A DNA stretch of 32,000 nt. Source: Megasphaera elsdenii DSM 20460. Its GTDB lineage: Bacteria > Bacillota > Negativicutes > Veillonellales > Megasphaeraceae. Positions within the stretch are counted from its first letter, which is position 1, and every line of letters begins with the position of its first letter. Position numbers and translations under genes: made by a program. Below are positions 4,133 to 16,181 of the stretch, one piece after another. The notes under the pieces were generated by a model. That model saw nothing but the letters and a program-made list of their open reading frames with translations, was not told the DNA's origin and did not search any database. The DNA lies in NCBI RefSeq assembly GCF_003010495.1, contig NZ_CP027570.1, positions 2,280,001 to 2,312,000 of the forward strand, written 5' to 3'.

Positions 4133-5254
4133 TTACAAAATCGAATCGAGTTTCTTCATGGCTTCCCGATTACGCTTATCTGTAATGGTATCGTAAATAT
4201 TAGCCGTCGTCGCAATCGAAGAATGACCTAGCCGTTTGGACACGTAGTCGAGCTCGATATTATTTTCCAACATCATCGTGGCATGGGTATGGCGGAAAGA
4301 ATGGAAACTGCCGCCACCAAATTCCTTTTTGCACCACATATTGAAATAGCGCATATCATTGCTGTTCATCGGACGGCCGTCTTCGCGGGTACAGACAAAA
4401 TCGCTTTCGACGTAATCGTCACCGTAGAGACGGTGGTTCTTGGCCTGCTGGGCCTTATGGCGGACCAGGGCTTTGTATAAAGTCTCATTAAAGGGAATCG
4501 TCCGGACCGATGACTTGGTCTTGGGCGTCGCCTTGCAAACAGGGATGCCTTTTTTATCATATAAGGTACTATCAACGGAAATCGTTCGGTTTTCCATGTC
4601 TATATGAGACCATTGCAAGGCCAGACATTCCCCGACACGAAGGCCTGTACAATAGGCAATCATGCAGGGAGCGTAATATTTATGCCCCAACGGAAAGGCG
4701 TGGAAAATAATCTGTATCTGCTGATGCGAAAAGATGACCGGCTTTTTCCGGGGAACGTCAAATTTCGGCATCTTGACATTGGCCATGGGATTCGTTTCGA
4801 TGTACTGGCGGTTGGAAACGGCCCAGCGCATGGCATCATTGAAGACCGTGAAAATCGACTTGACCGTCGAGCGGGAATAACCATCCTGCTTCAAGCTGTT
4901 GATCCAGTCCTGGATTTCCGCCGTCGTCAGCGCATCCAAAGCTTCATTCCCGAAACGGGCACCAATATGCCATTTAATGATTCCCGCATAGGAATCGTAC
5001 GTATTGGGCCCTAAATTGATACGCACATCTTTTTCCAGCCATTCCAATAAAAAATCCATCATCTTTATGACTGGCTTTTCCGAAACCGCTGCTTCATCGA
5101 GAGCCTTCATGGCCTGCCGATAGGCTTTAGCGGCCTGTGCATACGAAGTACCGCCGACGCGTTCTTCCCGCAGCCTGCCCTGACCATCTTTCGTCGGGAC
5201 TTCAATCGTATAATACCATTTCTTGCCTCGTTTTCGTAAATACATATGCGGCAC
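4133..5254 (-). CDS. Tyrosine site-specific recombinase / phage-type integrase
   Basis: The C-terminal catalytic signature is HSFRHTHATMML...LGHSSIATTANIYDT (HxxR, H, Y). The N-terminus (KKWYYTIEV) resembles an arm-binding domain. The second ATG at 5245 has better AGGAGG spacing. Confidence 0.9.
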   Translation of the reverse strand: MPHMYLRKRGKKWYYTIEVPTKDGQGRLREERVGGTSYAQAAKAYRQAMKALDEAAVSEKPVIKMMDFLLEWLEKDVRINLGPNTYDSYAGIIKWHIGARFGNEALDALTTAEIQDWINSLKQDGYSRSTVKSIFTVFNDAMRWAVSNRQYIETNPMANVKMPKFDVPRKKPVIFSHQQIQIIFHAFPLGHKYYAPCMIAYCTGLRVGECLALQWSHIDMENRTISVDSTLYDKKGIPVCKATPKTKSSVRTIPFNETLYKALVRHKAQQAKNHRLYGDDYVESDFVCTREDGRPMNSNDMRYFNMWCKKEFGGGSFHSFRHTHATMMLENNIELDYVSKRLGHSSIATTANIYDTITDKRNREAMKKLDSIL

Positions 5255-5858: not shown

Positions 5859-6899
5859 TCAATGGATTTTTTGCTGAATGTAAAATAACTTATCCAGCTG
5901 GTCTGTCGGCAGCACGTTCAGATGGGAAATGTCGTTTCGTGCCTGGTAGGCGCACTGGAACCATTCGTCGTCTTTTTCTTGGAAGAAGAGGCCCTGCCCC
6001 CGCAGGTAGTGCTGCAGGTGGCGGAGTTCCAGGTCCGTAGGCCGGTTCAGTTCTTTTCCGTATTCGTCCTGCTGGGGCAGTATCTGCTGTATCATCGTTT
6101 CGTATTTCCGGACCAGGTAACGGCGGATATCTTCGAGAATAGGTAAGACGTGCTGCATCTGTGTTTCCAGGAGGATTGGCACCAGGTCGACCGATAGCTT
6201 TTGTTCCTGTATGACTGTTTCCGGGTGGAAGTACAGGTCCTGCCGGGCCAGGGCCAGGCAGAGGCGGCCATCCATGCCGGCGATTTTGGCGATGATGTCG
6301 GCGGCATAGTACTGCTGACACAGGTTGAGTTCTGTATCGCGCAGACAGGTCATGGCGAAATACTGGATGTCATAATGATAGAGGTAGTGCTTGCGGTCCA
6401 GGAGGTGTACACCGGCCATCTTGTCCCAGGCTGCCAGGACCGGAGAAGGGGCCCGGAAGATCCAGGCACTCCCCTCCCGGCCGGCCAAGCGGCCTACGGC
6501 AGCGGCAGCCTGGGCCAGCCAGGGACAGTCACCGGAAGCGGAATCGATAAAAAAGACGTAATGCTGCAGCCCGGACTGACGGATCAGGCTGGTCAGCGGC
6601 GATTCATCTAAGGGGTCGAAGCGGAACTGGGGTGCATATTGCTGGGCGATGAAGGCTGTAAAGGCATTGACATCGTCAAAATCATCGGCAGCGATGCGCA
6701 CGTAATGGCAGTCACAGTCATAGCTGGAAATGCGGTCTTTCAGGGCTTCCGTGAACACGTCATCATCTAAGTCGGCATCCATGGCCAGGCACTGCTGGTC
6801 CAGGATGGCCCTGGCGATTTCCTTGACATATTTATGAGGTCCGGCGACTTCACGCCACCAGATATTGCCGGCTCCTTCATTCCATTCACGCGTTTCCAT
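5859..6899 (-). CDS. Hypothetical protein with a C-terminal HEPN-type RNxxxH motif; partner of the giant NTPase
   Basis: 346 aa. The start ATG overlaps the upstream gene's end by 14 nt. The C-terminus is ...QCAYQARNDISHLNVLPTDQLDKLFYIQQKIH, with R321-N-D-I-S-H326 encoded at 5922-5939. I recognise nothing in the N-terminal part. Confidence 0.8.
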   Translation of the reverse strand: METREWNEGAGNIWWREVAGPHKYVKEIARAILDQQCLAMDADLDDDVFTEALKDRISSYDCDCHYVRIAADDFDDVNAFTAFIAQQYAPQFRFDPLDESPLTSLIRQSGLQHYVFFIDSASGDCPWLAQAAAAVGRLAGREGSAWIFRAPSPVLAAWDKMAGVHLLDRKHYLYHYDIQYFAMTCLRDTELNLCQQYYAADIIAKIAGMDGRLCLALARQDLYFHPETVIQEQKLSVDLVPILLETQMQHVLPILEDIRRYLVRKYETMIQQILPQQDEYGKELNRPTDLELRHLQHYLRGQGLFFQEKDDEWFQCAYQARNDISHLNVLPTDQLDKLFYIQQKIH

Positions 6900-9800
6900 A
6901 TTCTCTCAGCTTCCTTTCGATATCGTCCCAATCGCCCATCATCATGTAGAAGTTGTAGCGGTTGAAGACATAGCCCTTCCCGCCTTCTTCCTGATGGAGG
7001 ATGTTCAAATCGGTCATTTCATCAATCAGGGCCTGGAGCTGTTCATCTCGCATGTCGGCGATTTTATGGACTTCGTAAGCGGCGCACACATCCCGGATGG
7101 TGTCGAGGGTGACCGGCACGACCCGCTGCTGTTCATACTGGTACTGATAGGCGACGACGAGGGCGATGATGGCATAGTAATTGTCCGCATCCAGTTCCAG
7201 GGTAATCATGAACAGGTCATCGATTTTCTGCCGGAATTTTTCGTCCTTCAGCAAGTCTTTCAAGTAGCTTTCATCCAATGGATAAGGCGGCGTATTGCAG
7301 TCCGTGAAGAGCTGGTTCTTGTATTGGCTGCGGATACTTTCGACGAGGTTCTTGCCGTAATACTGGATCAGTCCCGGGAAGTAATTAGTCTGGGCCAGGA
7401 TAGTGCTGATGATATCCTGGTTGCGGATTTCAAAACCCAGGTAGCTGAGCGGTTTTAAGAGGAGTTCGTTCGCTTCCAGGTAGCCGAAGGGCTTGACGAC
7501 CAGGTGGTCCAGCTGGGCGAAGACGGTATTATCGCCTAACTGTCTCCGGTCGAAGCGGATGACGTTGTGCAGGCCGGCAAAGATGAATTTGAAATGGCCC
7601 GGCACGTAGTCGCGGATGTCCTTCAGCACTTCAATAGGACGGTTCTGCTGAGCCGCCGCATCGACGAGGAAATGGTCCGATTCGTCATAGAGGATCATGA
7701 GCTTGTCGATGTTTTTCTTTCCTTGTGACCACAGGTCTTTCAAGCTCCGCCCCAGTTCATCCCACGTCCGGACATGTTTGTTCAGGATGCCTGCCCGCCG
7801 GAGTTCGTCGCACGTATCTCCTAAGACAGCGTCGCCATCTTTGTTCTTGATGTCGAGGTAAATGGCATAGTTCCCCTGCTCCGGATGGTGGACCAGGTAG
7901 CGGGTCTGCCGCAAGAGGGCACTCTTGCCCAGCTGTCGGCCGCCATAGACGAAGACCGGGCCGGCCATGTCCTGGATGGCTGCCAATTCAGTCGACCGGC
8001 CAATGAACATTTCCGGCGGAATCCGGGCTTCACTGATGAAGGGCTGGACATAGGCAAAGGGCAAGGCCAGGGCCAGCAGCTTATCGTTGCGGTCGTTCTT
8101 TTCAAAATGCGTCAGGTACAGGGCCAGGACCCGGTCCAGGACCAAGACGTTCTGCATATCCAGGTTGGTCTTCATGAGTCTGGCCAATTCGCGCCGATCC
8201 GAAAGGGTCAGGGCGGAGTCGAGGAAAAAGAGGGTCCCCTTTTCTTTGGCTACACTGAGCTGGGATATTTCATTGACGATGCTCTGCGGCGTGTGGCTGC
8301 CCCGGAAGAGGACGACATTCAGCCCATTGTAGTAGGCGCCGCTGCCAAAGACGGCAAAGGGATGGTGGAACCGGGGCGGATTCTTTTCGAACTTCACACT
8401 GTAACAGGTACAATTCTTTTCGGCCCGGCTGACCTGGATATCGGCGATGTTCCCATATCCCAGGCCCTCTAACAAGGGCTTCATCGATTTGCCGGGGGCG
8501 CTGGATTCAGCCGACCAGGCTTCGACGAAGTCGAGGCCGTCCTTTTCCTTGCGGTTCAGGCGGTCATGGACCCGTTTATTGCGGATTCCCGGCTTCTGGT
8601 CATAAATATTCTTTAGAGATAATTTTTTATTCTTGTTGCACAAATCGAATCCGGCCTGGTACTGTTCCAGGAATTGCGTGAACGTCTTCAGGCCGAAATC
8701 ACCTTGATAATTCAGGATGAGCTTCATTTCACGAGGGCTCTTGTGAGCACAGCGGTGCAGGTAGTCTTCGACGATGGTCAGGTTGCCATGGTCGAGCCAG
8801 GCCTGAATCGGGTCCAGCCAGGACAAGTCTTCCTCCTGGATTTGGGAGCGGAACTGGTCCAATTCGCGCTGCACGCTCTGACGGCGCGGTTCCGCTTCTT
8901 CATCGATGTGTTTCAGGCAGCTCTGGAGCAAGTCCTTGTACAGGGCAAAGTTCTCAGTCTTTTTGAAGTGGCTTCGGGCAGTATCGGCTACGGAAAAATA
9001 ATGTTCCATCCGTTCTTTGCCGATGATTTTTCCATAGTTGGCCGCCAGTTCGACGTCGCTCCGGTAATTTTCCGTATCGGCTGCGGCATACTGCAACCCG
9101 TACTGCAAGACCGTATCCCGCTTCCCGACGCGCTTTACCGCATCATCCAGGCCGGCGATTTGTCTGGCTATGCCCAAATTATAAACACGGACAGCCTGAT
9201 GATAGGCGTCCTGCCAGGAAAGGTCCGCCGTTTGGGACAAGCGTGCCTGGATATACCGCTGCAAGCGCGGGACGAGCGGGTATTCCCCGTCGTAGTCTGG
9301 CGTCAAGTCGGGCAGATAATCCGAATCCAGTTCAAAGGCGTTGGCTTTTAGTAAAGGGGCATAGTAAGGTTCGCCGCTGGAACAGCCCTGGAACTGCCGG
9401 GTCAAGTCGTTCAATAAGGCCTGAAGCACGGCTTTCGCCAGCTCATCCATCACGGTATCTACGGTCTGTCCGGCCAGCTCCGCTTGGGCCTGTTGTAACA
9501 GATCCAACCCTTTTTGCCGCTGCTGCGCCAAGACGTCCGGTGAAAGGCCATGCTGGTTCTGCTCATGCTGTGCCGCCTGTTTGGCCAGGATATAGCGGCA
9601 AAGGATGAGCACGGATTTCTTGATTAATTTGATTTGCTGCGTCGCATCTTTTCCCAGGAAGCGTTCGTTCTTTCGTTCGCCCACGGGAATACTGAACCAA
9701 ACGCCGTCCAAATATTCTTTTACTTTATTTTCATTGACCAGACGGTCTTCAATCCGATTTACTGGCGTATCCGCTGTCAAGGGCGTGTTAAGGAAGGTAT

Positions 9801-12207
9801 TACAAAAATCGCTGAGTTCCGTAAGGTCGAAGGCATCGACGTCTTTAAAATATGGGACGACCTGCCCATGACCACCGTATAACTGGGAGCGCAGGCCCCG
9901 CAGCCGGGGATGGGGCGACGGTTTCCGTTCATCCATGCACAGGGCCTGGTACTGTTCGGCTACGGCCTGACGGGCCCCATCGAGATCGACAGGCTGGCGG
10001 TCCGATGCGTGCTGCTGCAGACCATAGGCCAAGGACATACCTTGGGTATCGGCAAAGTTCTTGCATAAGGATACAAATTGTTTCAACGCCGGAATGGCTG
10101 TAAAGGCTTCATTCGGTTCTTCATTGATGCGGATCCACGTCTTGCTCAGCAAGTAGCCTTTCGGTTCAGCCGGCGCAAAAAAGGCGCGGACCATGGCGGC
10201 AGCATTCAGGACATCCCGGGACTGGCCCATTTCGATGGCCGTCAGGGAAATCATGGAGTCCCAGAAATCGAAGCCGTCGGAATGGGCAGCCGGGTCATAC
10301 AGCGGATCGCCGAGGATATAGGCGATTTCATCAGATAAAACTTCCCAATCCGCTTCGTCAGGACCAGCCGTGCTGGCCAGGGCATGGAGCCAGAAACTGC
10401 CTTCGGCCCGATGGCCTTTCTGGAGCAGCTGGCAGAAGGACTGCAAAGCGTCGGCCCTATCCGTGACTGCATCAGCCGTCGAGTCAGGAACCGCTTCTTC
10501 TGACGGTACCGATTCTGGCTGGGCTTCTTCCGTTTTTTCTGTTTCTTCCGGTTCTTCTGGTACCCCAGGTGCATCGGATTCATCTGGCCCATCCAGGTTC
10601 GGGACTTCCGCGACATGTTCATTGAGGAACAGCATTTTCTGCGTCTTTTCCCGGATATCCAGGCAATCGGGGATATCCACTTCGGCTTTCTTCACAGCTA
10701 CGGCAAAGAGGTCATCAGCCGTCAGGACTTCGCCTTTTGACGAAAAGAGAAAATCCCCCTTTTCATCGGGATGGGTCAAGGCCACATAGATATCTTCGGT
10801 CCCGAAGCGGGTCATCCAGGGCTTGGCGTATTCCCGGGAATCGGTCAGAAGCAGCTTGACAGCCGTCGATTTCGCCACGTACTGGAAGTCTTTCTGATCG
10901 GCTTCCAGCTCGGCTTCCGAAAAGGGTGGCCTGATGAGGAGGTATGCCGGCAGGAAGGTTCCATCATCGACCACCATGGACTTCCCAAAAATCACATAGC
11001 CAAAAAAGGCTTGGCGCTGAGCCCTGAAAAAGGCTATTTCATAGGGACTGTGATCCAATACCTGAAGGACGAAGCGCTCCATTTCATATAAGCGGCTGAA
11101 GCAGGTCCAGTCCGTCATTCTTGTAAAATAAGGGATATTGAAATATTTGCGCACTTTGTCGCGCTTCAAGACGTCATACGTCTCTGGCGTGAGCCGGTAA
11201 AAGGGCTGCGTTCCCCACTGATATTTGGCGGCCAGGCCCCAGTCCAAGAAGCGGCTGCGGATGGCTTGGAGACTGTTTTCAAACGTATCGGCGCCCATTC
11301 TTTTCTGCTGTTCCTGCAAGCCCCTCGACAGCCGGGCTTCTTCCCCTTCCCCGACAAAATCATGGAAACAGAGGGCCATGAGCCAGAAGATAGCCATCCC
11401 TTCGGTCTGTTCAGCGAACTGCTGGATGTCATGGGTAAAGGATTTAGCCCCTTTCAATTTAGCACGCAAGGGCTTCTGTTGAACCAAAGTCATGCCATCA
11501 GGCATAGCCGGCGCTGAAGTCGCCTTTTCAAGGGCCGGTACGGGTGCTGGTTCCGGTTCCGGAGTGAAAGCCGGTGTAGGCGGTACTTTCGCTGCGGTTT
11601 CCTCGGGAGCCGCAGCCGACTGTCCTTCTGTCAAGCGGAAATCATGATAGATGCAGGCCAGGCTGATATCGCCGCCGAACTGGCTGCGCAGGGAATCGGC
11701 CAGGTCCCGGTCCAAGAGGGGTCCGTCGAAGCGGACGGCTTCCAGGAAGCGGATATATTTTTCGGCCTGTTCCGATAGTTCGTCGAAGGTCAGGGACAGG
11801 CCCAACAAGGCCTTGACATCGCCCTGCATCTGGCGGAACTGGCTGGCTATGGACTCATCAGTTCCCACATAGACCACGTCGAATATGCCTTCCAATTGAT
11901 GTACCATGGCTTTCATGGCCTCGCGGTTTTCCTGTTCCCGATGCCAAGCTTCGATTCGTTCCCCTAATTCATCGGCTTTATCGGCCGTCGCAATCTGGAC
12001 CTGTGCCAGGGCCTGACATAGCGCATCCTGGGCTTGGCTCAGTGCTTGCAAATCGTCCCGGACGGCTTGCTGCTGACGTTCCGGAAACCACAATCCATTA
12101 TCCAAGGCTACACATAACCCCTGAATATGCTGCCGGCTGTCTTTACGGACAACCATCATATGCTCGTAGAGTTCTTTAAGCTTTTCATATTCATCCATTC
12201 CGGTCAT
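6886..12207 (-). CDS. Giant (1773 aa) protein with a C-terminal STAND/ORC-like P-loop NTPase domain
   Basis: Walker A is GGRQLGKS (residues 1422-1429, nt 7921-7944), preceded by FIGRSTEL. Walker B is LMILYDESD (residues 1503-1511, nt 7675-7701). Two Pro/Glu-rich linkers lie at nt 11500-11619 and 10462-10605. The ATG at 12198 has better RBS spacing than the one at 12207. Confidence 0.85.
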   Translation of the reverse strand: MTGMDEYEKLKELYEHMMVVRKDSRQHIQGLCVALDNGLWFPERQQQAVRDDLQALSQAQDALCQALAQVQIATADKADELGERIEAWHREQENREAMKAMVHQLEGIFDVVYVGTDESIASQFRQMQGDVKALLGLSLTFDELSEQAEKYIRFLEAVRFDGPLLDRDLADSLRSQFGGDISLACIYHDFRLTEGQSAAAPEETAAKVPPTPAFTPEPEPAPVPALEKATSAPAMPDGMTLVQQKPLRAKLKGAKSFTHDIQQFAEQTEGMAIFWLMALCFHDFVGEGEEARLSRGLQEQQKRMGADTFENSLQAIRSRFLDWGLAAKYQWGTQPFYRLTPETYDVLKRDKVRKYFNIPYFTRMTDWTCFSRLYEMERFVLQVLDHSPYEIAFFRAQRQAFFGYVIFGKSMVVDDGTFLPAYLLIRPPFSEAELEADQKDFQYVAKSTAVKLLLTDSREYAKPWMTRFGTEDIYVALTHPDEKGDFLFSSKGEVLTADDLFAVAVKKAEVDIPDCLDIREKTQKMLFLNEHVAEVPNLDGPDESDAPGVPEEPEETEKTEEAQPESVPSEEAVPDSTADAVTDRADALQSFCQLLQKGHRAEGSFWLHALASTAGPDEADWEVLSDEIAYILGDPLYDPAAHSDGFDFWDSMISLTAIEMGQSRDVLNAAAMVRAFFAPAEPKGYLLSKTWIRINEEPNEAFTAIPALKQFVSLCKNFADTQGMSLAYGLQQHASDRQPVDLDGARQAVAEQYQALCMDERKPSPHPRLRGLRSQLYGGHGQVVPYFKDVDAFDLTELSDFCNTFLNTPLTADTPVNRIEDRLVNENKVKEYLDGVWFSIPVGERKNERFLGKDATQQIKLIKKSVLILCRYILAKQAAQHEQNQHGLSPDVLAQQRQKGLDLLQQAQAELAGQTVDTVMDELAKAVLQALLNDLTRQFQGCSSGEPYYAPLLKANAFELDSDYLPDLTPDYDGEYPLVPRLQRYIQARLSQTADLSWQDAYHQAVRVYNLGIARQIAGLDDAVKRVGKRDTVLQYGLQYAAADTENYRSDVELAANYGKIIGKERMEHYFSVADTARSHFKKTENFALYKDLLQSCLKHIDEEAEPRRQSVQRELDQFRSQIQEEDLSWLDPIQAWLDHGNLTIVEDYLHRCAHKSPREMKLILNYQGDFGLKTFTQFLEQYQAGFDLCNKNKKLSLKNIYDQKPGIRNKRVHDRLNRKEKDGLDFVEAWSAESSAPGKSMKPLLEGLGYGNIADIQVSRAEKNCTCYSVKFEKNPPRFHHPFAVFGSGAYYNGLNVVLFRGSHTPQSIVNEISQLSVAKEKGTLFFLDSALTLSDRRELARLMKTNLDMQNVLVLDRVLALYLTHFEKNDRNDKLLALALPFAYVQPFISEARIPPEMFIGRSTELAAIQDMAGPVFVYGGRQLGKSALLRQTRYLVHHPEQGNYAIYLDIKNKDGDAVLGDTCDELRRAGILNKHVRTWDELGRSLKDLWSQGKKNIDKLMILYDESDHFLVDAAAQQNRPIEVLKDIRDYVPGHFKFIFAGLHNVIRFDRRQLGDNTVFAQLDHLVVKPFGYLEANELLLKPLSYLGFEIRNQDIISTILAQTNYFPGLIQYYGKNLVESIRSQYKNQLFTDCNTPPYPLDESYLKDLLKDEKFRQKIDDLFMITLELDADNYYAIIALVVAYQYQYEQQRVVPVTLDTIRDVCAAYEVHKIADMRDEQLQALIDEMTDLNILHQEEGGKGYVFNRYNFYMMMGDWDDIERKLREYGNA

Positions 12208-12366
12208 CTCCTATTCCGTACTCTCTTGACTCACTGCGAACCGCTCTATTTATTAATTCGATACAAAACAGTAAAATCCTGCACCGTTTTTTTATCCAGT
12301 ATTTACGCGTTTCATACATTTCTTTGCTATACTGAGAGGACTAGCACAGAAAAGGAATGATAGAGA

Positions 12367-13032
12367 GTGAAGAAACTGACTTATGAAAATATTGCCCATG
12401 CGAAAGAGTTGAATGTCTATTTAGAACAGGGGAACCGGGTCCTCGATGCCTTGGGGTATACGGACCATTCGCAAAAACATACGGCCAAAGTGGCTGTCAC
12501 GGCCGGTAAAATTCTAAAGAAGCTCGGCTATGACGCCCACACGGTAGAACTCGTGCGCATCGCGGGGTATATGCATGACCTGGGGAACAGCATCAACCGC
12601 GTGGATCATGCCCATACGGGGGCTCTCATGGCCTTTCATTTCCTGCGCGACTGGGGCGCGCCGCCAGAAGATATTGCGGCCATCATCTCAGCGATCGGTC
12701 AGCACGATGAACGAAGCGGCATCGCTTTCGACCCCATTTCGGCAGCCTTAATCTTGGCCGACAAGAGCGACGTCCGCCGGGACCGCGTCCGCAACACCGT
12801 ACCGGAAACTTTTGACAAGCACGACCGCGTCAATTATGCGGCTTTGTCTTCAAAGCTCCACGTCGATACGCACAAGAAAGTCATTACTTTGAACATCGAG
12901 CTCGATGAATCGATTTGTTCTATGATTGATTATTTTGAAATCTTTTCCCAGCGCATGCTCATGTGCAAGCGGGCTGCCGAAGTCCTGGACCTGCGCTTCA
13001 AACTGGTAGCCAATGGCAATAAAATCGCATGA
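12367..13032 (+). CDS. HD-domain metal-dependent phosphohydrolase
   Basis: 221 aa with a GTG start 9 nt after AAAGGAA. Motifs: HSQKH, GYMHDLGN, HAHTG, GQHDE. An extended -10, TGCTATACT, lies at 12325-12333. Confidence 0.7.
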   Translation: MKKLTYENIAHAKELNVYLEQGNRVLDALGYTDHSQKHTAKVAVTAGKILKKLGYDAHTVELVRIAGYMHDLGNSINRVDHAHTGALMAFHFLRDWGAPPEDIAAIISAIGQHDERSGIAFDPISAALILADKSDVRRDRVRNTVPETFDKHDRVNYAALSSKLHVDTHKKVITLNIELDESICSMIDYFEIFSQRMLMCKRAAEVLDLRFKLVANGNKIA

Positions 13033-13093
13033 CGCTTTTGAGTGTCATACAATTATGATAAAACATACATATTTCGTAGCTTATCGAAAAAAA

Positions 13094-13138
13094 GGCGACA
13101 CCTAATTTTTAACATTTAGGCATGTCGCTTTTTCTTTT
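13094..13138 (+). terminator. Intrinsic terminator after the HD gene
   Basis: Interrupted stem GGCGACA-CCTAA / TTAGG-CA-TGTCGC, followed by TTTTTCTTTT. An A-run lies upstream. Confidence 0.55.
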
Positions 13139-13194
13139 CCATGATACACTTATAATATAGTTTAAAATATGTTGCAGAGAAAGGAATCATACTT

Positions 13195-13752
13195 ATGCTA
13201 CGTTATGGAAAAGGAACACTTCTCATTACGGTCCTGACCGGACTGCTGGCCCTGTCCCTGCTGACGGCAGGATGCGGCAGTACGACACAGACTAAGAGTA
13301 CTGCCGTTTCAGTCAAGGCCATGAAAGTTCTCCAGCAGGATACGGCTGTGAGCCACGACTATTCAGGGCAGATCAAATCGACTAACGCCGTCACGATCAA
13401 GCCCCGCGTCTCCGGGGAAATCGTGGAGAAATACTTCACGTCTGGCGCACCCGTCGAAAAGGGACAGGCCTTATATAAAATCGACGACCGCCAATATGAA
13501 TCGGAAGTCCTCTCGGCTAAATCGAATGTCGATAAGGCCCGGACGACGCTCAATAACTCCCTCGTCGACTTGAACCGCTATCAGCAGTTGGCAGCATCCG
13601 GCGCCGTAGCGGAACAGACCTTGACCAACCAGCAAGCCACGGTAGACAGCAATCAGTCGAGTTACGACGATGCCAATGCCCTCTTGCAGAAGGCCCAGGA
13701 AAATTTAGACGATACGATCATCCGGTCGCCGAATTCGGCAATATTATCTTGA
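13195..13752 (+). pseudogene. RND efflux periplasmic adaptor (MFP), truncated to about half length
   Basis: Lipoprotein signal with the LTAGC lipobox, and a coiled-coil MFP N-terminal half. Reading stops after ...DDTIIRSP-NSAILS, where the sequence switches into RND permease sequence in another frame. Confidence 0.7.
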
Positions 13753-16181
13753 AATCGGCTTCAAACGGCCAATTCGTCTACCTCAAGGATGTAGCCAACA
13801 TCCAGACGGGGACGCAGAACGAAAGCAGCAATTCCAAGATCAACGGGAAGACCGGTATCGGCTTCGGTATCCAGCTCTCCAGTGACGCCAATGCCTTAGA
13901 TACGATTACGGAAGTCAAGAAGGTCCTGGACCAGGCTAAGGAAACATTCCCGCCTGACCTGGATTATACCATCGTCATGGACAATACGAATTTCATCAAT
14001 GCCTCGATTAACGAAGTCAAAGATACTTTCGTCGAATCGCTGCTCCTGGTCATCCTCGTCGTCTTCGTCTTTCTGCAGAAATGGCGGACGACGCTCATCC
14101 CGGTCCTGGCCGTTCCCGTTTCTATCGTCGGTACTTTTGCTTCTTTCAAAATCCTCGATTTCACCATCAATACGCTGACCCTGTTCGCCATGGTCTTGGC
14201 CATCGGCCTGGTCGTCGACGACGCCATCGTCGTCATAGAAAATGTCGAAGAGCATATGTCCAAGGATAAACTGTCTTCTAAGGATGCGACGGAAGCAGCC
14301 ATGAAAGAAGTCCAAGGGCCCATCATCGCTACGACAGCCGTCTTGGCTTCGATTTTCATTCCCGTCGCTTTCATCGGCGGTGTCACTGGCGTCCTGTACA
14401 AGCAGTTCGCCGTGACCATCACCATTTCCGTCGTCATCTCGGCCTTCGTCGCCCTGACCTTGACGCCAGCCTTATGCGGTGTCCTTCTGAAGCCCGGCGA
14501 CAAGGCCATCCAGGCCGGGCCGCTGGGGGCCTTCTTCCGCGGGTTCAACCGGGCTTTCGACCATTTCAAGGACCGCTACACGGGGAAAGTCGGCTGGATG
14601 ATCCGTCATCTGAAATATGCCGCTGTCTTCCTCATCCTGGTCACGGGCCTCATGGGCATCTGCTACCAGGTCCTGCCGTCGACGTTCGTCCCCGATGAAG
14701 ACCAGGGGTACTTCATGGCCAGCATCACCATGCCTGAAGGGACTTCCTTGAATCAGACCATCAAGACCGTCGACGCGGCAGCGGAAGAGACGCGGCAGAT
14801 TCCCGGCGTCAAAGATGTCATGACCCACGCCGGCGGCTCTACGTCGAATACGGGCAATCTCTATGTCGCGCTGGAAAATTGGGATGACCGCCAATCGAAC
14901 GACCTCAGCGCCGAATCGATTATTGCCAAATTCAATAAGACCGTCGTTCCCAAGCATCCCGAAGCCCGTGTAGCGGCTTTTAATCCGTCATCCCTGCCCG
15001 GCATGGGCCAGGAAGGCGGCTGGACCATGCAGCTCATGGATAATACGGGCCTGTCCGATACGGAACTGGGAAACGCAGCCAACCAGGTAGTCGCCGCCTG
15101 CTCCCAGCGGCCGGAATTATCCGGTGTCCGCACGAGTTACGCCACCAATACGCCGAGCGTCGCTTATACGGTAGACCGCGAAAAAATTAAGAACCTGGGC
15201 ATTGAACTGTCTGACGTTTTTACAGCGCTCCAGACCAACTTCGGCGGTTCGTCGGTCAATGACTTCACCCAGTTCGGCCGGTCGTACAAGGTCATCGTCC
15301 AGGCCGACACATCGTACCGTTCTCAGGCAGACAGCTTGAAGTTCATTTCCGTCAAGTCGTCGTCAGGGAAAATGGTTCCCCTCGATACGCTGCTGACCAG
15401 TTCGATGACCACCGGGCCGTCGTCAATCACCCGGTTTAATGGCGTCCGCAGCGTCACCATCCAAGGCAGTGCTGCCAGCGGCTACAGCTCTGGCGAAGCC
15501 ATGGCAGCGGCCGAAGAAGCGGCCAAGAGCGTCATGCCGACGGGGATGACCATCGAATGGTCTGGCCAGAGCCGCGAAGAAAGCACCTCGTCCAGTTCAA
15601 CGACAAAAATTCTGATCATGGCTCTGGTCTTTGCCTTTCTCTGCCTGGCAGCCCTTTATGAAAGCTGGTCCATGCCGTTCGCCGTCTTATTCACCGTACC
15701 GACGGGTATCTTTGGAGCCGTCGGCTCAGAATACATCATCCGCCAGCTGGCGACTTTGTTCAATGCCAACACGAGCGGCTTCTTGAACAGCGTCTACATG
15801 CAAATCGGCGTCATCATGATCATCGGCTTGGCAGCTAAGAACGCCATCCTCATCGTCGAATTCGCCAAAGAGCGCGTCGACAAGGGCGTCGACCCGATGG
15901 AAGCCGTCGTCATCGCATCCAAGCTGCGCCTGCGGCCAATCCTCATGACAGCCTTTACGGCCATCATCGGCTGCCTGCCCCTGGCCTTTGCCAGCGGTGC
16001 CGGTGCTGGAGCCCGCTGCGGCATGGGCGTCGCCGTCGTCGGCGGCATGACCTTCGCTACCCTTTGCGGGTTGCTCCTCATCCCGGCGTTTTGCATCATT
16101 TCCGAAAAAATGGCCCGCAACTTCTGGAAAGCCACGGGCCTGAAGCGAATCAAATTCAAATACCGCATGTTGCGGCGGTGA
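13731..16181 (+). pseudogene. AcrB-type RND permease lacking its N-terminal ~215-235 residues
   Basis: The frame translation from 13731, EFGNIILKSASNGQFVYLKDVANIQTG...ANALDT..., matches the AcrB region STEEFGKILLK...RDVAKIELG as I recall it. Later motifs (LAIGLVVDDAIVVIENVE, TM7-12) are intact. The only in-frame start is a TTG at 13749, with no TM1. Confidence 0.7.

Follow-up and report, generated by a model that had tools for sequence, protein, structure and literature searches.

The locus and its two genes

The stretch of DNA analysed here (in the following "the window") comprises 32,000 nucleotides of the genome of Megasphaera elsdenii DSM 20460 (contig NZ_CP027570.1, positions 2,280,001 to 2,312,000). 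On its reverse strand lie two adjacent genes, a very long one encoding a predicted P-loop ATPase (the giant protein) and, directly behind it, a short one encoding a protein that carries the motif R-N-D-I-S-H close to its C-terminus (the small protein). In this study we ask what the small protein does, and consider it rather probable that its gene provides the effector part of a module that consists of just these two genes, is probably mobile and probably serves in anti-phage or abortive-infection defence. The positions of the genes and of their features are collected in Table 1.

The open reading frame (ORF) of the small protein is real, and its translation agrees with the one quoted in an earlier interpretation of this DNA that was made from the letters alone (the sequence-only reading). 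The protein is a "hypothetical protein" of Megasphaera elsdenii (cluster WP_278967717.1 / WP_072981293.1). Its motif lies where the sequence-only reading had located it, with R321 as the 26th and H326 as the 21st residue counted from the C-terminus. The giant ORF ends within the first codons of the small one, an overlap that suggests translational coupling, and in all other loci the junction of both genes is an overlap of 4 nucleotides or similar, or the genes abut.

Table 1. Genes and sequence features of the two-gene locus and its surroundings (positions in the window, except for the last row, which concerns the viral contig L017).
Feature	Position	Strand	Remarks
Small partner gene	5859..6899	(-)	346 amino acids; pseudo-AAA+ domain and HEPN-like C-terminal domain
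R321-N-D-I-S-H326	5922..5939	(-)	predicted catalytic Rx4H motif
E291 (E-L-R-H-L)	6027..6029	(-)	near-invariant acidic residue; starts the helix preceding the motif-bearing helix
Compact helical C-terminal domain, HEPN-like	5862..6188	(-)	residues ~238-346
AAA+-like alpha/beta core and helical lid, without nucleotide-binding motifs	6204..6836	(-)	residues ~22-232
HYVFFID strand	6543..6563	(-)	residues 113-119; Walker-B-equivalent position in the AAA+-like domain
W14-W15	6855..6860	(-)	near-invariant Trp-Trp in an N-terminal tail predicted to be disordered; candidate for a peptide that docks to the giant protein
Overlap of giant stop and small start	6886..6899	(-)	14 nucleotides, read from the sequence
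Giant partner gene	6886..12207	(-)	1773 amino acids; ORC/Cdc6-STAND-type P-loop ATPase predicted at the C-terminus
Walker A, G1422-GRQLGK-S1429, of the giant protein	7921..7944	(-)	invariant in 8 giant proteins that are 22-87% identical
Walker B, MILYDESD, of the giant protein	7675..7698	(-)	D1508, E1509 and D1511 invariant
Tyrosine integrase, directly downstream of the pair	4133..5254	(-)	Phage_integrase, E value 7e-27; context, outside the module
Prophage features of L017 (IMG/VR)	7257-7673 and 10261-14009	(-) and (+)	setting of the two-gene module

Conservation of the motif in the small-protein family

The pattern R-x4-6-H occurs five times in the small protein, at residues 16, 107, 169, 219 and 321. 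Because five copies are found within one protein, the bare pattern is uninformative and it is the conservation that carries the information; only the copy at residues 321-326 is conserved. A word-indexed search returned just 12 relatives, in all of which R-N-x-I-S-H is invariant, including one at 25% identity. An exhaustive HMMER search was seeded with the alignment of these first 12 relatives and yielded a family of 651 representatives (50%-identity clusters) at an E value of at most 1e-3, and 350 at an E value of at most 1e-10. Among the 150 family matches listed, nearly all have a length of 320-390 residues and match from end to end. The motif R-N-x-x-x-H occurs ~20-30 residues before the C-terminus in 133 out of 134 full-length representatives, and the single exception reads R-C-S-L-A-H. 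It is also retained in all 80 out of 80 further metagenome copies.

To regard the individual columns, 138 full-length members of the family were aligned, most of which are 15-25% identical to the protein of the window. Just four columns are invariant, namely Y198, Q247, R321 and H326. The sequence-only reading had proposed the conservation of R321 and H326 in homologues as a test of its claim for a catalytic motif, and in these diverged members the outcome is in its favor. Within the motif N322 is Asn in 137 out of 138 members and position 325 is either Ala or Ser in all 138, and the signature of the family can be written as [A]-R-N-x-[LI]-[AS]-H. Conserved in at least 90% of the members are W14, W15, D177, P253, E256, R259, E291 and N322. 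W14 is present in 129 and W15 in 136 out of 138 members, E256 is present in 130, and residue 291 is Glu in 131 and Asp in the other 7. Both E256 and the invariant Q247 are located within the long first helix of the C-terminal domain.

The C-terminal domain

Residues 232-346 were modeled with AlphaFold2 together with 50 diverse homologues, resulting in a predicted local distance difference test score (pLDDT) of 95.3 and a predicted template modeling score of 0.86. The model consists of a 26-residue helix, an insert formed by a short helix and a beta-hairpin, and then three helices. In two AlphaFold2 models R321 ends the penultimate helix, and H326 begins the loop leading toward the last helix. 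The sequence-only reading had placed the motif at the start of the last helix, and in this point it has to be corrected. The corrected position is the canonical one for HEPN domains according to PMC3710099, where the Rx4-6H site closes core helix 3 and opens the loop toward helix 4 of a four-helix up-down bundle. The same source describes a conserved acidic residue which, when present, is located in helix 2, and for KEN domains a polar residue after the Arg that contributes to catalysis. With N322 as the polar residue following R321, and with E291 in the preceding helix, the small protein would fit this description, and E291 is a candidate counterpart of the acid that HEPN active sites carry in helix 2.

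A further hint comes from profile searches. In a Pfam scan of the 138 members (E < 1) HEPN_Swt1 was matched by 30 members with a best E value of 8e-4, and DUF4145, a HEPN family, by 4; the remaining families were each matched by no more than 4 members. The family consensus matches HEPN_Swt1 with an E value of 0.006 (profile positions 68-104 of 115) and DUF4145 with an E value of 0.049, and both of these matches span helix 3, the motif and helix 4. The small protein of the window by itself had no match in Pfam, and nothing relevant was found when it was used as a single sequence to search the PDB. Weak PADLOC matches of the family fell on Cas13a (six members, the only repeated one) and, once each, on Csx1, AbiD, DUF3644 and CARF_HEPN.

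The N-terminal pseudo-ATPase domain

The AlphaFold2 model of the whole small protein has a pLDDT of 82. Its layout is a five-stranded alpha/beta domain (residues ~22-165) followed by a helical lid (~177-231) and then the helical C-terminal domain. Residues 1-21 have a pLDDT below 50 in this monomer model and are predicted to form a disordered tail, which holds the near-invariant Trp-Trp. A Foldseek search of the whole model against the PDB gave ORC2 from Aeropyrum (1w5t) as the best match with an E value of 5e-5, and other matches were subunits of the E. coli clamp loader, RFC, eukaryotic ORC1-5/Cdc6 and the NB-ARC modules of plant NLR proteins. Overall the matches to AAA+ proteins have E values of 5e-5 to 1e-3 and probabilities of 0.9-1.0; the template modeling (TM) score is only ~0.3 in these matches because the orientation of the domains differs. 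Judged by Foldseek on the AlphaFold2 model, residues ~22-232 have the core-plus-lid fold of AAA+ proteins.

A Walker A P-loop ([AG]x4GK[ST]) is found in none of the 138 family members, and its position is taken by a conserved Pro-Trp. Column 119, which in the window contains the Asp of HYVFFID, is mostly Arg, Lys, Thr, Ser, His or Tyr across the family and not acidic. As the domain has an AAA+-like fold with neither a P-loop nor a conserved Walker-B acid, the N-terminal two thirds of the small protein are a pseudo-ATPase and not an ATPase. The sequence-only reading had already noted that the protein of the window has no P-loop, which holds for all 138 aligned members of its family, and had suggested a degenerate NTPase-like domain for the N-terminal part, which is supported by the structural matches to ORC/Cdc6, clamp-loader and NLR proteins together with the P-loop count. 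It had further described HYVFFIDSAS as Walker-B-like; the strand is indeed present, and the Asp is not conserved across the family. A functional Walker B at this place was therefore rejected, the Asp being specific to this lineage.

Pairing of the small gene with a giant partner

The order of giant gene and then small gene is observed in the window as well as in L001 (a Faecalibacterium metagenome-assembled genome, MAG), L005, L006 (a Megasphaera MAG), L008, L010, L011, L013, and the IMG/VR viral contigs L016 and L017. To put this on a broader basis we regard a metagenome set of 80 loci, forming 16 clusters at 70% identity, of which 57 have at least 5.45 kb of upstream DNA. An ORF of at least 1,700 codons ends at most 60 nucleotides from the start of the small gene in 54 out of these 57 loci, and the remaining 3 have broken frames. 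Among the 23 shorter loci, 18 have an upstream frame that stays open as far as the contig edge. The length of the partner ranges from ~1,750 to 1,900 amino acids. Both proteins diverge in parallel: compared to the window, the small and the giant protein of L005 are 54% and 56% identical, and those of L001 26% and 22%.

No third conserved gene was found by an all-against-all BLAST of the flanking ORFs from 21 diverse loci, and since no third gene is conserved beside the pair, the pair is a self-contained two-gene module. An antitoxin or a regulator as a third gene of the module was rejected on the same grounds. A small HTH_17 (Xis/AlpA-like) gene lies 12 nucleotides upstream of the giant gene in L011 (4414-4629) and in L013 (4333-4629, + strand). 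It is common only to these two close relatives and could encode a local regulator or the excisionase of the element on which it resides.

The first ~1,390 residues of the giant protein contain no recognisable domains; they have a coiled-coil-like start and two Pro/Glu-rich linkers, and no match to them was found in Pfam, PDB, PADLOC, NCBIfam or PHROGs. A search of the PDB with a profile of the giant protein likewise gave nothing relevant. The sole Pfam signal is C-terminal, with matches to AAA_22 in 8 out of 8 giant proteins (best E value 3.6e-5), to AAA_16 in 6 out of 8 and to ATPase_2 in 5 out of 8; the scores of the giant protein from the window are below the gathering score for all three. 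A Walker A motif GGRQLGK[ST], a Walker B motif hhhhDE[AS]D and a sensor-like AGL[HR]N are invariant or nearly so in giant proteins that are only 22-24% identical, and GGRQLGK[ST] is also found in the metagenome copies. Judged by these sequence motifs, the C-terminus of the giant protein is predicted to be an intact ATPase of the ORC/Cdc6-STAND type.

Some further observations concern the architecture of the giant protein. Just upstream of the ATPase there is a strongly conserved alpha/beta region (window 8026-8490, - strand; residues ~1240-1394) with the invariant residues H1282, F1287-G1288, R1338-R1339 and D1358-R1359 and no library match, which could be a second regulatory or effector domain. 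The two low-complexity linkers are rich in Pro, Glu and Ala (window 11490-11610 and 10410-10575, - strand; residues ~200-240 and ~545-600) and divide the N-terminal part into a coiled-coil-like segment, a block of ~300 residues and a large central region. Strain variants of the giant protein (P0014-P0029, 92-98% identical) have in-frame deletions at residues 337-419, 355-479, 861-968 and 216-429. Each of these deletion variants is found on one or two contigs and the full-length form has ~2,100 cluster members; the variants could be real variants of a sensor region, or artefacts of assembly or gene calling. P0036, a distant relative of the giant protein, has the ATPase alone in common with it and no small partner. 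P0035, a distant relative of the ATPase, has 3,092 amino acids and combines a PF01637-type ATPase with pPIWI-RE Argonaute domains (PF18157, PF13111, PF13032), and this type of ATPase has therefore also been joined to a different nucleic-acid-targeting effector.

Genomic context and distribution

The integrase gene directly downstream identifies the pair as belonging to an integrated mobile island. The order of HD-domain gene, giant gene, small gene and integrase gene occurs also in the Megasphaera MAG L006. In the window the HD-domain protein (221 amino acids, 12367-13032, + strand), which has weak matches to Cas3-HD and RNase Y-type HD domains, is encoded divergently from the giant gene. This gene order is not seen in distant loci. 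The HD-domain protein is probably cargo of the island or a chromosomal neighbour, outside the module. About 1 kb from the island an efflux operon (window 13195-16181, + strand) looks internally deleted: 13195-13752 encodes a 185-amino-acid N-terminal fragment of an AcrA/HlyD-type adaptor, and 13749-16181, in another frame, an AcrB-type pump beginning at position 247 of 1021 of the Pfam profile. This may be a pseudogenised RND operon.

Other loci differ in their surroundings. The neighbours in L011 are GmrSD, an SNF2-type helicase, SocA_Panacea and IS66, and in L013 there is a NERD-domain protein. In L017 the module closes a prophage; its neighbour is a CI-type repressor, and genes similar to Mu Gam and to Sak4 follow further downstream. 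Such a placement is typical for accessory or defence genes of prophages. Taken over 115 flanking genes, methylases, Vsr, ResIII, integrases and transposases are found, plus many housekeeping genes. The distribution of the module is sporadic, with 2 out of 185,579 species genomes in a search with patterns of the close family. Searches of E. coli genomes, PLSDB plasmids and genomes of cultured phages gave no copy of the module.

Weighing of the evidence and alternative explanations

There are several observations that do not sit well with an RNase effector of the HEPN type acting in a defence module. No HEPN model of Pfam is reached at its gathering score (17.3 compared to 27.5 bits for the consensus), and the sub-threshold matches are limited to the half of the domain that comprises helix 3, the motif and helix 4. 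Foldseek searches of the model of residues 232-346 against PDB and BFVD returned no HEPN domain and nothing significant, with best E values of 1.6-1.7 and TM scores of 0.2-0.3. Sequence-profile searches of the PDB, both with the profile of the 138 members and with that of the C-terminal part, gave nothing relevant. The large insert is positioned between core helices 1 and 2, unlike the usual placement in HEPN domains, which PMC3710099 gives as between helices 2 and 3. Regarding the module as a whole, no detectable relationship was found by hhalign between the pseudo-ATPase of the small protein and the ATPase of the giant protein. The neighbour census is mixed, and many loci are without defence neighbours; the arguments for a role in defence are therefore the mobility of the module, its sporadic distribution and part of its contexts, and in its behaviour the module is a mobile islet and not a strict resident of defence islands.

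Beside this it may be noted that the small pseudo-ATPase was also considered as a possible paralogue of the giant's ATPase, which was rejected at an hhalign probability of 0.6%.

The HEPN assignment made by the sequence-only reading thus stands in part. The conserved motif, which in the HEPN superfamily commonly reads R-[NHD]-x-x-x-H, its position relative to the helices, E291 and the repeated matches to HEPN profiles are in its favor; the fold, for which a structural comparison of the C-terminal region had been suggested, found no HEPN match in PDB or BFVD (best E value 1.6), and no curated threshold was reached. For these two reasons, the missing threshold and the missing HEPN structure among the Foldseek matches, we use only the term "HEPN-like" for the C-terminal domain and do not claim its membership in the superfamily.

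An alternative is that the C-terminal part is a helical catalytic domain unrelated to HEPN, in which RNxxxH arose by convergence and forms part of another active site, e.g. that of a DNase, a phosphodiesterase or a nucleotide- or NAD-modifying enzyme, with R321, N322 and H326 joined by Y198, Q247, E256, R259 and E291. That neither HEPN nor any other known fold is retrieved with a model of pLDDT 95 speaks for such a domain, as do the sub-threshold HEPN profile matches that are all confined to ~40 residues around the motif, the atypical place of the insert, and the invariant or near-invariant residues Y198, Q247, D177, E256 and R259, which exceed the needs of a minimal HEPN site. We nevertheless regard it as unlikely, since in two profile libraries that are independent of each other nearly all weak matches are to HEPN models and not to random families, since the position of the motif, the polar residue after the Arg and the upstream acid agree with the description in PMC3710099, and since HEPN families are described there as very divergent outside the motif.

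Less probable again, and in our view doubtful, is that the small protein serves the giant ATPase as a regulatory or adaptor subunit without catalysis of its own, comparable to the inactive clamp-loader delta'. For R321 and H326 this would mean an interface contact or the binding of a ligand, be it RNA, a nucleotide or a signal molecule, and the effector would be found within the ~1,390 N-terminal residues of the giant protein, which, being unannotated, could hide one. It agrees with such a role that the best structural matches of the whole small protein include subunits of clamp loaders and of ORC, some of them inactive, and that some HEPN domains are non-catalytic binders according to the abstract of PMC3710099. 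According to that source, however, non-catalytic HEPN domains typically lose Rx4-6H, as in the inactive Swt1. In the family of the small protein practically all members retain R, N and H over a very deep divergence, as is expected of catalytic residues.

That the pair has no anti-phage function at all and is an addiction (toxin-antitoxin-like) module, or serves the maintenance or competition of its element, with the giant protein as antitoxin or regulator of a HEPN toxin, is very improbable, for although the pair adjoins an integrase in Megasphaera and IS66 in L011, sits inside prophages and often lacks defence neighbours, an ATPase of ~1,800 residues is far larger than known antitoxins (to our knowledge none approaches this size), accessory genes next to prophage repressors and neighbours from restriction clusters are typical of defence genes, and the distinction is itself not sharp because abortive-infection systems often act as toxin-antitoxin-like pairs.

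Comparison with known systems

The small-protein family resembles the Swt1-like/Abi2 (AbiD/AbiF) clade of HEPN domains (PF18731 HEPN_Swt1, PF07751 Abi_2, also DUF4145, PF13643), with which it shares [A]-R-N-x-L-[AS]-H and a final amphipathic helix. The most frequent and the best profile matches of the family are to this clade, and one member is weakly similar to AbiD. What separates the family from the clade is that it scores below the gathering threshold and only against the C-terminal half of the HEPN profile. In bacteria the members of this clade are associated with defence, and in the Ava_2192 subgroup they are fused to an AAA+ ATPase (PMC3710099). In Ava_2192 the HEPN domain is located N-terminal to an active DUF499-type AAA+ ATPase, whereas in the small protein an inactive AAA+-like domain precedes the HEPN-like one, and an active ATPase is predicted on the separate giant protein.

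With PrrC and RloC the small protein shares the combination of an N-terminal NTPase-type domain with a C-terminal HEPN-type domain, there an RNase, on one polypeptide of a few hundred residues. PrrC and RloC are kept latent through a much larger partner complex and are released on phage infection, and the Arg and His of their motif are essential; their own features are an active ABC (Rad50/SbcC-like) NTPase and a type I restriction-modification partner (all from PMC3710099). In contrast, the small protein is AAA+-like without a P-loop, and its partner is a single ATPase of ~1,800 amino acids. No sequence similarity to PrrC or RloC was detected, and no hsd genes are linked to the pair.

RNase L and Ire1 are similar by analogy only: here, too, a HEPN RNase whose site is of the R-N-x-x-x-H type follows a domain with a nucleotide-binding fold. 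The kinase-fold domain of RNase L is catalytically dead, and both RNase L and Ire1 are activated by dimerisation or oligomerisation. They differ from the small protein in being eukaryotic, in having a kinase fold and not an AAA+ fold, and in having no separate giant partner. Their KEN domain is moreover circularly permuted, as stated in PMC3710099.

Systems of the STAND/Avs type, PARIS (AriA/AriB), Septu and Gabija resemble the proposed module in that their sensor or scaffold is a large P-loop ATPase, combined with a nuclease effector that infection switches on. Pairs of an ATPase scaffold and a nuclease, such as PARIS, follow a logic similar to that of the proposed module. The AAA_16, AAA_22 and ATPase_2 signals of the giant protein are typical of the ORC/Cdc6-STAND group. 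In Avs the effector is fused N-terminally and the sensor is C-terminal, while in the giant protein the ATPase is found at the extreme C-terminus and the putative effector on a separate pseudo-ATPase subunit.

A comparison of the 138 small and 8 giant proteins with PADLOC-DB v2.0.0 gave only matches at noise level (E > 0.001). Neither protein has a model in Pfam, NCBIfam, PADLOC v2 or PHROGs, the defence catalogues compared being those up to PADLOC v2, and no description of the architecture or of the protein accessions was found in the literature. The components, a P-loop sensor ATPase and a HEPN-type effector, are familiar. The arrangement is not, namely a pseudo-AAA+-HEPN-like subunit that would act in trans with a protein of ~1,800 residues bearing the ATPase at its C-terminus, the HEPN-like domain being so divergent that fold searches miss it.

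A possible mechanism

For the two-gene defence module we propose the following course of events. The giant protein would be sensor and switch, its large N-terminal region recognising a cue of infection and its ATPase driving oligomerisation or a conformational change. The small protein may dock on the giant protein via its pseudo-ATPase domain, and perhaps also via the Trp-Trp tail, much as inactive subunits do in clamp loaders or ORC. Since HEPN RNases require a composite active site formed by a dimer, we suggest that the small protein is inactive until activation pairs two HEPN-like domains. The active site would then be made of R321, H326 and N322, probably also of E291, Q247 and Y198. The active enzyme might cut RNA (tRNA, rRNA or mRNA) without a metal, leaving 2',3'-cyclic phosphate ends, and the cleavage could stop translation in the infected cell and thereby lead to abortive infection.

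A more far-reaching idea, which we put forward as a possibility and with some reserve, is that the pairs represent a two-gene immune system which is as yet undescribed and occurs widely in gut Firmicutes, its clusters at 50% identity numbering 651 or more. It would consist of a sensor ATPase of ~1,800 residues and a pseudo-AAA+ subunit with a divergent HEPN RNase, and the ATP-driven oligomerisation would pair the HEPN domains and set off the cleavage of RNA. Such a system would be a prokaryotic counterpart of the RNase L/Ire1 logic, in which a dead nucleotide-binding domain is combined with HEPN, and its HEPN domain a new structural subclass that is invisible to current fold searches.

Significance

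If the small protein is indeed the effector of the module, a large unannotated family of 651 clusters at 50% identity would gain a testable function. Its members would be the RNase effectors of a new defence module that is under the control of an ATPase and resides on prophages and genomic islands in bacteria of gut and rumen. Switchable HEPN nucleases have been useful as tools, e.g. Cas13 and Csm6. The combination of pseudo-AAA+ and HEPN domains, paired in trans with a giant ATPase, would be a new architecture among the HEPN immune nucleases, and the unannotated region of ~1,390 residues in the giant protein is a candidate for a new phage-sensing domain.

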